Shown one piece after another: positions 26,689 to 29,437 of a DNA stretch of 64,000 nt. The translations under genes and the position numbers were made by a program. Under the pieces are notes generated by a model. The model made no database searches and was not told where the DNA came from. It saw nothing but the letters and a program-made list of their open reading frames with translations. Origin of the DNA: Eledone cirrhosa (taxonomy: Eukaryota); contig OZ024742.1 in the NCBI GenBank assembly GCA_964016885.1, positions 129,084,001 to 129,148,000 on the forward strand, in the 5' to 3' direction. The first letter of the stretch is position 1. Every line of letters begins with the position of its first letter.

Positions 26689-27774
26689 TGAGTTGAGATG
26701 GAGGGTCTGTGGTTTTTCTATATATATATATATATGTATATATATATATGTATATATGTATATATATATATGTATATATATATATGTATATATGTATATA
26801 TATATATGTATATATATATATGTATATATATATATGTATATGTATATATATGTATATATATATATGTATATGTATATATAAATATGTATATATATATATG
26901 TATATATATATATATATATATATATATGTATATGTATATATATGTATATATATATATGTATATGTATATATAAATATGTATATATATATATGTATATATA
27001 TATATATATATATATGTATATATATATATATATATGTATATATATATATATATATATGTATATATATATATATATATATATGTATATATGTATATATATA
27101 TATGTATATATATATATGTATATATATATATGTATATGTATATATATGTATATATATATATGTATATGTATATATAAATATGTATATATATATATGTATA
27201 TATATATATATATATATATGTATATATATATATATATATGTATATATATATATATATATGTATATATATATATATGTATATATATATATATATATGTATA
27301 TATATATATATATATATATGTATATATATATATATGTGTATATATATATGTATATATATATATATGTATATATATATGTATATATATATGTATATATATA
27401 TATGTATATATATATATGTATATATATATATATGTATATATATATATATGTATATATATATGTATATATATATATATATATATATATATATATATATATA
27501 TATATATATATATATATATATATATATATATATATATATATATATATATATACAATTAAGTTAGAAGTGTACATCCACATATGTATACTGAAATACTAGT
27601 ATGCATATAAATACACACACGTATACATATGTAGATGTACCGAGTTTTTCACTGGACACTTTACTGTGAGTGTTCAGCTAGTCTGTATGTAAACACACAG
27701 ACAAACCGGTTTTTAGAGTCATACTGGTTTTCGAGGAAACACCTTTCCTCTATTCTCCAGAGGGCCAGACAGGA

Positions 27775-27817
27775 ATATTGGACTAGTTTCGATGTTGTTA
27801 CATCTCATCAGCAATAT
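27775..27817 (-). ncRNA. Minimal type I hammerhead ribozyme (intact core)
   Basis: Minus strand: atattg-CTGATGA-gatgt-aaca-acatc-GAAA-ctag-TC-caatat; predicted cleavage after GUC (between 27781 and 27780). Confidence 0.88.
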
Positions 27818-28486
27818 ATACCCATCCTCCGGCCCCTCTAGAGAATCGTAAAAGCACATATCGTTATATGCTTTTTCTATGAAAATTAGTAGTGGGCAGA
27901 CTAATTTGCATAGAGCGTGAGTACGTACCGGTTCAGCGGAAGCGATAAAAACAAATAACGAAACGAAATTAAATTTCGTTTGTAACTCACTTTTGTATGA
28001 CTGACGCTTAAACAATTAAGTTAGAAGTGTACATCCACATATGTATACTGAAATACTAGTATGCATATAAATACACACACGTATACGAGAATAGAGGAAA
28101 GGTGTATCCTCGAAAACCAGTATGACTCTAAAAACCGGTTTGTCTGTGTGTTTACATACAGACTAGCTGAACACTCACAGTAAAGTGTCCAGTGAAAAAC
28201 TCGGTACATCTACATATGTATACGTGTGTGTATTTATATGCATACTAGTATTTCAGTATACATATGTGGATGTACACTTCTAACTTAATTGTTTAAGCGT
28301 CAGTCATACAAAAGTGAGTTACAAACGAAACAAAATTTAATTTCGTTATTTGTTTTTATCGCTTTCACTGAACCAGTACGTACTGACGCTCTATGCAAAT
28401 TAGTCTGCCCACTACTAATTTTCATAGAAAAAGCATATAACGATATGTGCTTTTACGATTCTCTAGAGGGGCCGGAGGATGGGTAT

Positions 28487-28529
28487 ATACTGCTGATGAG
28501 ATGTAACAACATCGAAACTAGTCCAATAT
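28487..28529 (+). ncRNA. Minimal type I hammerhead ribozyme (second copy, one stem I mismatch)
   Basis: atactg-CTGATGA-gatgt-aaca-acatc-GAAA-ctag-TC-caatat; predicted cleavage after C28523. Stem I extends through 28458-28486 / 28530-28552. Confidence 0.85.
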
Positions 28530-29437
28530 TCCTGTCTGGCCCTCTGGAGAATAGAGGAAAGGTGTTTCCTCGAAAACCAGTATGACTCTAAAAACCGGTT
28601 TGTCTGTGTGTTTACATACAGACTAGCTGAACACTCACAGTAAAGTGTCCAGTGAAAAACTCGGTACATCTACATATGTATACGTGTGTGTATTTATATG
28701 CATACTAGTATTTCAGTATACATATGTGGATGTACACTTCTAACTTAATTGTTTAAGCGTCAGTCATACAAAAGTGAGTTACAAACGAAACGAAATTTAA
28801 TTTTGTTTCGTTATTTGTTTTTATATATATATATATATATATATGTATATATATATATGTATATATATATATATATATATATGTATATATATATGTATAT
28901 ATATATGTATATATATATGTATATATATATGTATATATATATATATATATATATATGTATATATATATATATATATATGTATATATATATGTATATATAT
29001 ATATGTATATATATATATATATATGTATATATATATATATATATGTATATATATATATATATATGTATATATATATATATATATGTATATATATATATGT
29101 ATATATATATATGTATATATATATATGTATATATATATATGTATATATATATATGTATATATATATATGTATATATATATATGTATATATATATGTATAT
29201 ATATATATATATGTATATATATATATGTATATATATATGTATATATATATATATATGTATATATATATATATATATATATATATATGTATATATATATAT
29301 ATATGTAAATATATATATATATATATATATATATATGTATATATATATATGTATATATATATATATATGTATATATATATATATATATATATATATGTAT
29401 ATATATATATATATAAATATATATAAATATATATATA

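Follow-up and report, generated by a model that had tools for sequence, protein, structure and literature searches.

A candidate non-LTR retrozyme family of Eledone cirrhosa with a Penelope-type pairing of insertion ends

Results

Architecture of the locus

The locus lies in the analysed window, a 64,000-nt stretch of the Eledone cirrhosa genome, and consists of two back-to-back arms of one non-coding unit, flanked on both sides by (TA)n (Table 1). Unit positions are numbered from the first base 3′ of the cleavage site. The two arms are 97-99% alike, differing at 12 of 538 positions, and each arm is without a different 5-mer of one hairpin. An earlier note on this DNA had put the arms at about 1.2 and 1.6 monomers, which the measured lengths bear out, and had given the unit an exact 460-bp period. 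A period of 460 yields 262 matches over 274 ungapped positions (56-102 for periods 450-469), but the repeat is not exact and the value is a local one; in the family, the monomer measures 463-470 nt (n = 42 monomers). The unit contains no credible ORF, as had been stated, the longest stop-to-stop frames inside it being 98 aa.

Table 1. Features of the two-arm element and its flanks, in window coordinates
Feature	Position	Strand	Remarks
Left (TA)n/(TATG) tract	26720..27551		Target side of the arm ending at site A
Left arm, 535 nt, 1.2 units	27552..28086	-	Unit positions 155 to end, then 1-229; outer end is site A
Long AU-rich hairpin just upstream of site A	27569..27640	-	Also 28204-28275 and 28664-28735 on the + strand
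Left-arm type I hammerhead, long stem I	27750..27850	-	Core start 27811; predicted cleavage after 27781; family-type stem I
Inner junction of two 5′-truncated arms	28086..28087		Blunt; unit positions 155 and 24
Right arm, 738 nt, 1.6 units	28087..28824	+	Unit positions 24 to end, then 1-301; outer end is site B
Right-arm type I hammerhead	28454..28554	+	Core start 28493; predicted cleavage after 28523
72-nt "tail" between start sites A (229) and B (301)	28753..28824	+	At this end only; contains a purine-rich/U-rich hairpin
Right (TA)n tract	28825..29438		Target side of the arm ending at site B

Other mobile elements surround the locus. The same TA tract adjoins, at window 26512-26720 (-), a piece of the terminal repeat of a Neptune/Nematis-type coding Penelope-like element (PLE), which ends at that PLE's long site. 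The hammerhead-like motif of this piece has an altered core, UUGAAAA for CUGAUGA, and has kept stem II, GAAA, the palindromic loop and GUA; the same altered motif is present in another copy (L170) with a 938-aa open frame. The PLE piece and the two-arm element sit between a LINE at 22176-25383, with endonuclease, RT and PHD-finger matches, and a second copy of the 3′ part of that LINE at 29427-30047, just right of the TA tract. Elsewhere in the window are another LINE (51656-55841, +), with a 329-aa frame plus a 1045-aa endonuclease and RT frame, another PLE-type hammerhead-like motif (50116, +), and a tRNA-like Rfam match (50591-50648, -) that is probably the head of a SINE.

Hammerhead and RNA structure of the unit

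Each arm in the window has a single type I hammerhead with a full core, a 5-bp stem II and a long, interrupted stem I, in agreement with the one ribozyme per unit described before. Rfam HH9 matches both regions, at 27759-27829 (-, E 6.5e-6) and 28475-28545 (+, E 9e-5); the two matches are under the gathering score, and none is at gathering. The GUC cleavage triplet ends at 28523, the position previously assigned to it. Stem III is one pair that closes a palindromic CUAG loop, and the plus arm alone carries a change, at 28490, by which stem I is mispaired close to the core. In the family, the hammerheads have the core, stems I and II, and a triplet of GUC, GUU or GUA. Rfam microRNA matches on the AU-rich hairpin were far under gathering and were taken as chance.

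Because stem III is weak and palindromic, cleavage is predicted to take place mainly as a dimer (PMC4209133, PMC7229834). The axolotl ribozyme HHR_Amex1 is described as having a one-pair stem III with a palindromic tetraloop and as cleaving well only as a dimer (PMC7229834). With one ribozyme per strand, the window locus is unable to release a monomer, a caveat that had already been attached to it, and is thus a dead end for circle production. At 34 of 61 loci parsed across the genome, at least two ribozymes are found in one arm, and such loci could be source loci.

The 101-nt ribozyme regions fold with z scores of -5.3 and -4.6 against 200 shuffles. When the unit is folded as a circle, a check that the earlier note had named, it reaches -152 kcal/mol with 66% paired and a z score of -7.5 (60 shuffles); this score is not strand-specific, since the circle of the antisense strand folds with a z score of -7.3. 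One of the helices proposed for the unit, agcgtcagt/actgacgct, has to be given up: it rests on a substitution (28385) that only the plus arm has, and the family pairs these segments differently.

We compared the unit with a sister family that is described below. Among pairs changed on both sides, 14 of 20 still pair, versus 38 of 92 slid controls (p 0.026), and the helices with compensation include stems I and II. This comparison of two families gives moderate support to a paired RNA structure that would be conserved between them. The letters of the catalytic core are retained in the sister families seen. Inherited changes occupy 0 of 523 cells at the 12 core positions and 260 of 17,559 cells elsewhere, cells that are not independent of one another; counted by site, the figures become 0 of 12 and 72 of 407 (p 0.23, not significant). 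Post-insertion changes strike the core and the rest equally (0.52% and 0.50%). By site, the counts are a weak indication of purifying selection on the ribozyme core.

A dispersed family and its relatives

The unit is not single-copy, which the earlier note had named as a result that would speak against its reading. An exact 31-nt ribozyme core occurs 1,633 times in the genome (control 0), and a looser core pattern, in a set that includes the sister family, occurs 19,576 times (control 0). A genome search with the unit returned 981 candidates, 40 of which were scored; among the 172 matches listed, identity is up to 100%. We parsed 70 loci, the first 30 chosen by similarity and the others by genome order, and dropped nine as duplicates to leave 61. 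Tandem, non-coding and dispersed units with (TA)n flanks, as first read from the window locus, are found across the parsed loci, and one unit follows another with an unchanging period in arrays that reach 15 or more units. The family is dispersed at high copy number, and coding PLEs are present in the same genome. Very long arrays were noted at G000:C1:5737300-5754500, L076, L068 and L077 (~30 units on one arm; 19+; 15-16).

Most outer arm ends adjoin (TA)n, and at the one empty site that could be reconstructed the TA tract was already there before the insertion. We also considered de novo synthesis of the (TA)n flank; the one informative empty site has ~5-8 TA repeats in most copies, ~24 in one and ~22 after insertion, figures that agree with synthesis as well as with a tract of this length already in place. 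In the flanks of four loci (L071, L099, L131, L149), TA tracts contain many small perfect fold-back elements, several with hammerhead-like motifs; these are likely ultra-short two-arm insertions of other PLE families.

The sister family has a unit of ~422 nt that is 63% identical to the one studied here (261 of 412 columns) and has U-U at the base of stem II. It is present at many loci (for example L055/L113, G000:C4:351546569-351546983) and accounts for about half of the first 100 looser-core places listed. Two further relatives, ~75% and 67% identical to the sister family, were met in PLE flanks at L180:7700-9900 and L109:2985-3600. The unit of the former is near 490-510 nt, and both are fold-back, TA-flanked elements with the tail region in common.

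Paired insertion ends

Two divergent arms are found at 46 of the 61 loci, and the other 15 are single-armed, cut off or split. The arms had been read as starting and stopping at different points of the unit, as expected from the copying of a circular template. This holds for the inner ends, which vary from locus to locus, but the outer ends fall family-wide at two fixed sites, at 44 of the 46 two-arm loci. Most ends of one class, which we refer to as site A, are at unit positions 226-233 (42 of the 92 arm ends), and those of the other, which we refer to as site B, are at positions 295-301 (44 of 92).

The two sites are used in a paired fashion. At 44 of the 46 two-arm loci one arm ends at A and the other at B, with 22 loci in each order; there is no A/A and no B/B locus, and the remaining two have one non-standard end. 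Under an independent choice of ends, the odds of the observed pairing are 2^-44. A second list, compiled from junction patterns on contig C1 to 81.3 Mb, has a B end opposite 19 of 26 A ends and an A end opposite none; 11 of these 19 A/B loci were newly found, while eight overlap loci already fetched. One apparent B/B pair in that list proved to be two separate insertions. Forward junction matches genome-wide number 405 for A and 1,168 for B, counts that are not comparable because pattern stringency differs and reverse counts are multiplied.

The loop of a small AU-rich hairpin contains site A in the two families alike, and site B is at the end of a U-rich stretch 3′ of a larger hairpin; bases at the two sites could pair with a TA primer. 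Arms of the sister family end at the homologous sites 216 and 275 (16 and 15 of 53 arms, respectively), and all seven of its two-arm loci that were clearly scored are A/B, the others being blurred by an internal TA tract. A short inverted A-end copy lies at L191:2207-2310, just past the TA flank and tail to tail with the main arm.

The Penelope-type inverted and truncated arms pointed out earlier thus prove to be a feature of the family, with 44 of 46 two-arm loci showing inverted 5′-truncated arms and a tail at one end only. The fixed outer ends are the "tail at one end" mark known from PLEs. Coding PLEs of this genome show the same pattern of ends: long/short at four of four two-arm loci of the Neptune/Nematis type, and short/long at the one two-arm locus of a Hydra-type element (1/1).

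The inner junctions (n = 46) comprise 25 with an overlap of at least 1 nt (46% expected by chance), three that are blunt and 18 with extra bases. An excess of inner ends at positions 14-29 (14 of 107) agrees with stalling at stem I. Three other accounts of the ends were rejected. Twin priming in which the B arm stops at site A does not describe B-arm inner ends that spread over the unit, with one case at 232. Hairpins do not set the inner junction, as few of the 46 junctions join paired stem positions. Arms do not characteristically end at the cleavage site, where six of 107 inner ends are found at positions 1-4 but three of the six run past the site.

We hold with strong confidence that the retrozyme is moved by a PLE enzyme. 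The locus itself is very probably one insertion of a multicopy, hammerhead-bearing 465-nt non-LTR retrozyme family, made by PLE-enzyme priming from two start sites. At the level of sequence, the features of non-LTR retrozymes are all present, with self-cleavage and circles predicted. The tandem, hammerhead-bearing, non-coding and multicopy organization, the (TA)n targets and the inverted arms support the earlier reading of a retrozyme with a Penelope-like RT.

Arm sequence and the nature of the template

The cleavage site is crossed by 98 of 104 arms, so the template is a circle or an uncut multimer, not a cut linear monomer. With the indel-prone region 255-300 masked, divergence is 0.86% across arms, 0.74% within arms and 2.65% between loci. 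Non-majority alleles fixed in both arms number 195 in 34 loci, and three sites are fixed different. These values point to one template for the two arms of a locus. In favour of a circle, the units within each of two arrays, eight and nine units long, are identical except where indels were masked.

The alternative that survives best has the same family and the same PLE priming, but takes an uncut linear multimeric transcript as the template, with the ribozyme mostly idle and the arrays kept long by DNA duplication. Such a template is in keeping with work on a lizard PLE, for which ribozyme mutants are reported to be without effect on insertion in vitro and uncut RNA to be the main substrate (PMC11167929), and with the cleavage in vitro of one of nine Xenopus dimers (10.64898/2026.07.22.740005). 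It also agrees with the lack of an excess of ends at the cleavage site, and with variant repeats of period 4, 5 and 6 in three long arrays (L068, L077, L088), which indicate that part of the array length comes from later duplication, not from rolling-circle copying. At three loci, the outermost segments of both arms carry a common variant that is absent from the inner units, an arrangement better explained by a mixed linear multimer or by gene conversion than by one circle. A linear multimer is harder to reconcile with the distribution of variants within loci, where 324 of 359 are singletons and segments in register are not more similar than those out of register (0.86% versus 0.62% divergence). 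It is also harder to reconcile with locus-specific variants that have reached fixation across all units of the two arms, for which a one-unit bottleneck is needed, and with the retention of the catalytic core letters noted above. Gene conversion between the inverted arms could also make the arms alike. On this evidence the linear multimer appears to us possible but rather doubtful, and we lean towards a circle as the usual template.

Two sequencing runs were compared with the family. Run X5, whose kind is not on record and for which strand and level are not given, has 28 contigs on the locus, one of which bridges the cleavage site with the variants of one subfamily. It includes spliced contigs of a ribosomal protein gene, but it also covers intronic repeats, and we regard its contigs as a weak sign of transcription of the family. 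Run X4, which has another organism label, includes a contig of 497 nt whose end runs back into its start (466+31); exons and introns of the control gene are uncovered in this run, so it is uninformative on circles.

Relationship to coding Penelope-like elements

The coding PLEs of the genome include a Neptune/Nematis-type family, named by its zinc-finger motifs, with a tail of ~65 nt and one copy that has the 938-aa open frame and near-identical terminal repeats. Hydra-type PLEs have RWR, DKT and CxCX5C motifs, with a tail of ~97 nt in one. Copies of a Hydra-type coding PLE (L165, L166, L101-L112) are ~95% identical, with a hammerhead near the end of a 3′ UTR of around 1.7 kb, and with two 3′ ends that lie ~97 nt apart; the frames are interrupted in the copies read. 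Target and end pattern make the Neptune/Nematis-type family or the Hydra-type families candidates for the driving enzyme. One locus (L005) was at first taken as a head-to-head chimera of the retrozyme and a Hydra-type PLE, but the PLE continues on the other side, so that the locus is a single arm nested in the PLE 3′ UTR with ~17-20 nt of target lost. Two other loci (L124 and L129) are head-to-head with PLE pieces.

The earlier note had raised against its own reading that the unit might always be the terminal repeat of a coding PLE. In none of 65 PLE loci does the terminal repeat resemble the unit or its sister, and the matches are inserted retrozyme copies or simple repeats; no PLE with sequence shared with the unit was found in this set. 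No RT plus GIY-YIG frame continuous with the unit was found among the retrozyme loci fetched or the 65 PLE loci. A second alternative, which sees in the unit nothing more than a coding PLE's terminal repeat and in the loci heavily truncated tail-end copies of that PLE, would draw on the two-arm, TA-flanked and short/long-ended insertions that coding PLEs also make here. A rare parent is conceivable given 10,596 GIY-YIG candidates in the genome versus the 65 PLE loci examined. We nevertheless judge this alternative very improbable in view of the 65 loci without such a repeat, of the self-joined unit with its constant period in long arrays, and of the single-arm loci inspected, which are without a common foreign sequence or a PLE frame directly upstream.

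More improbable again is that recombination spread a DNA satellite or a fold-back element, or that AT-rich DNA gave rise to an assembly artefact: local duplications do occur, and no sequencing-run contig compared with the locus was seen spanning the inner junction, but outer ends are fixed and asymmetric and inner ends variable at 44 loci, the differences between the window arms mean that they are not a mirrored read, and the ribozyme core is intact and the structure kept across families.

Discussion

A retrozyme moved by a PLE enzyme would be expected to go through the following steps. Arrays with at least two ribozymes would be transcribed, would self-cleave as double hammerheads and would become circles by ligation. 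The A-B region would be bound by a PLE protein, probably dimeric, which would also cut both strands of a (TA)n tract. Of the two DNA ends, one would be primed at A and one at B, with a single RNA as template for both. The two cDNAs would copy through the ribozyme site, often for more than one round, and stop at random, and the inner ends would then be joined. Long arrays may later lengthen by local duplication. For PLEs in vitro, the tail is described as the stretch between two RT start sites, both target strands are cut and extended, and a dimer is predicted (PMC11167929).

It is quite possible, if short of probable, that a dimeric PLE enzyme works on one circular RNA with two RTs, primed one per fixed site, that follow one another around the circle and between them write the two arms. 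Were this so, the one-ended tail would be obligatory, as the outcome of an asymmetric reaction in which the two primings are coupled. The related retrozyme families of this genome, at least four in number, would form a clan that has kept the two-site handle while losing likeness to coding elements.

The family resembles the metazoan non-LTR retrozymes as described by Cervera and de la Pena (2020, PMC7229834). Those are non-coding and made of short units in tandem, each of which carries one type I hammerhead; they are present in thousands of copies, highly paired and accompanied by PLEs. It differs in the length of the unit, 465 nt versus a range of 170-400 nt, and in its inverted two-arm insertions and fixed ends, of which no description was met in PMC7229834 (0 matches for "inverted" in its main text). 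The circles of those retrozymes were seen by Northern blot, whereas the present family is known from sequence.

Vertebrate retrozymes (Li, Clavereau, Pollet 2026, 10.64898/2026.07.22.740005) are likewise presented as tandem hammerhead units, of 51-972 bp, that co-occur with PLEs and for which a link to PLEs is proposed. That study names 35 species, with no mollusc among them. Its PLE link is based on co-occurrence and on similarity to PLE terminal repeats, whereas the link here is based on the signature of insertion, and similarity was not found. It suggests local growth of arrays after insertion, whereas in the present family several units are already found in each of the two arms, which are of one variant (10.64898/2026.07.22.740005).

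The insertions are closest to those of endonuclease-positive PLEs, that is, Penelope/Poseidon PAc (PMC11167929) and Neptune, Hydra and Naiad (PMC8557442), as these sources describe them. Both have an inverted 5′-truncated arm, partial tandems and a tail at one end, and both have two internal RT start sites downstream of the hammerhead and AT-rich or (TA)n targets. Unlike those PLEs, the unit here has no ORF (PMC11167929, PMC8557442). The tail is 72 nt here, 59 nt in the sister family and ~65 and 97 nt in the coding PLEs of this genome, versus the 30-40 bp described (PMC11167929, PMC8557442), and its restriction to one end is near absolute, versus "often" in the account of PLEs (PMC8557442).

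In the literature covered on retrozymes, hammerheads, octopus or cephalopods, and Penelope, with Repbase and some supplements outside its scope, we found no description of the family or of a strict end rule, and the word "octopus" has 0 occurrences in the main texts of PMC7229834 and PMC4209133 (supplements outside scope). We regard the retrozyme family as new, and a prior listing in Repbase or in supplements may exist. What is new here, set beside the sources cited, is a mechanistic mark linking retrozymes to PLE priming, together with a near-absolute pairing of start sites that is elsewhere stated as a tendency (PMC8557442).

Reviews describe retrozyme repeats as being without a motif that points to the enzyme used (PMC7761336). 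The route by which animal retrozymes return into DNA has so far been a proposal, and the two-start-site mark found here ties retrozymes to the PLE machinery by mechanism. The strict rule of one A end and one B end, with one variant in both arms, sharply predicts how the later steps of Penelope integration should run. With its thousands of insertions and its diverged sister, this young non-coding family provides a large natural data set and a small test substrate.
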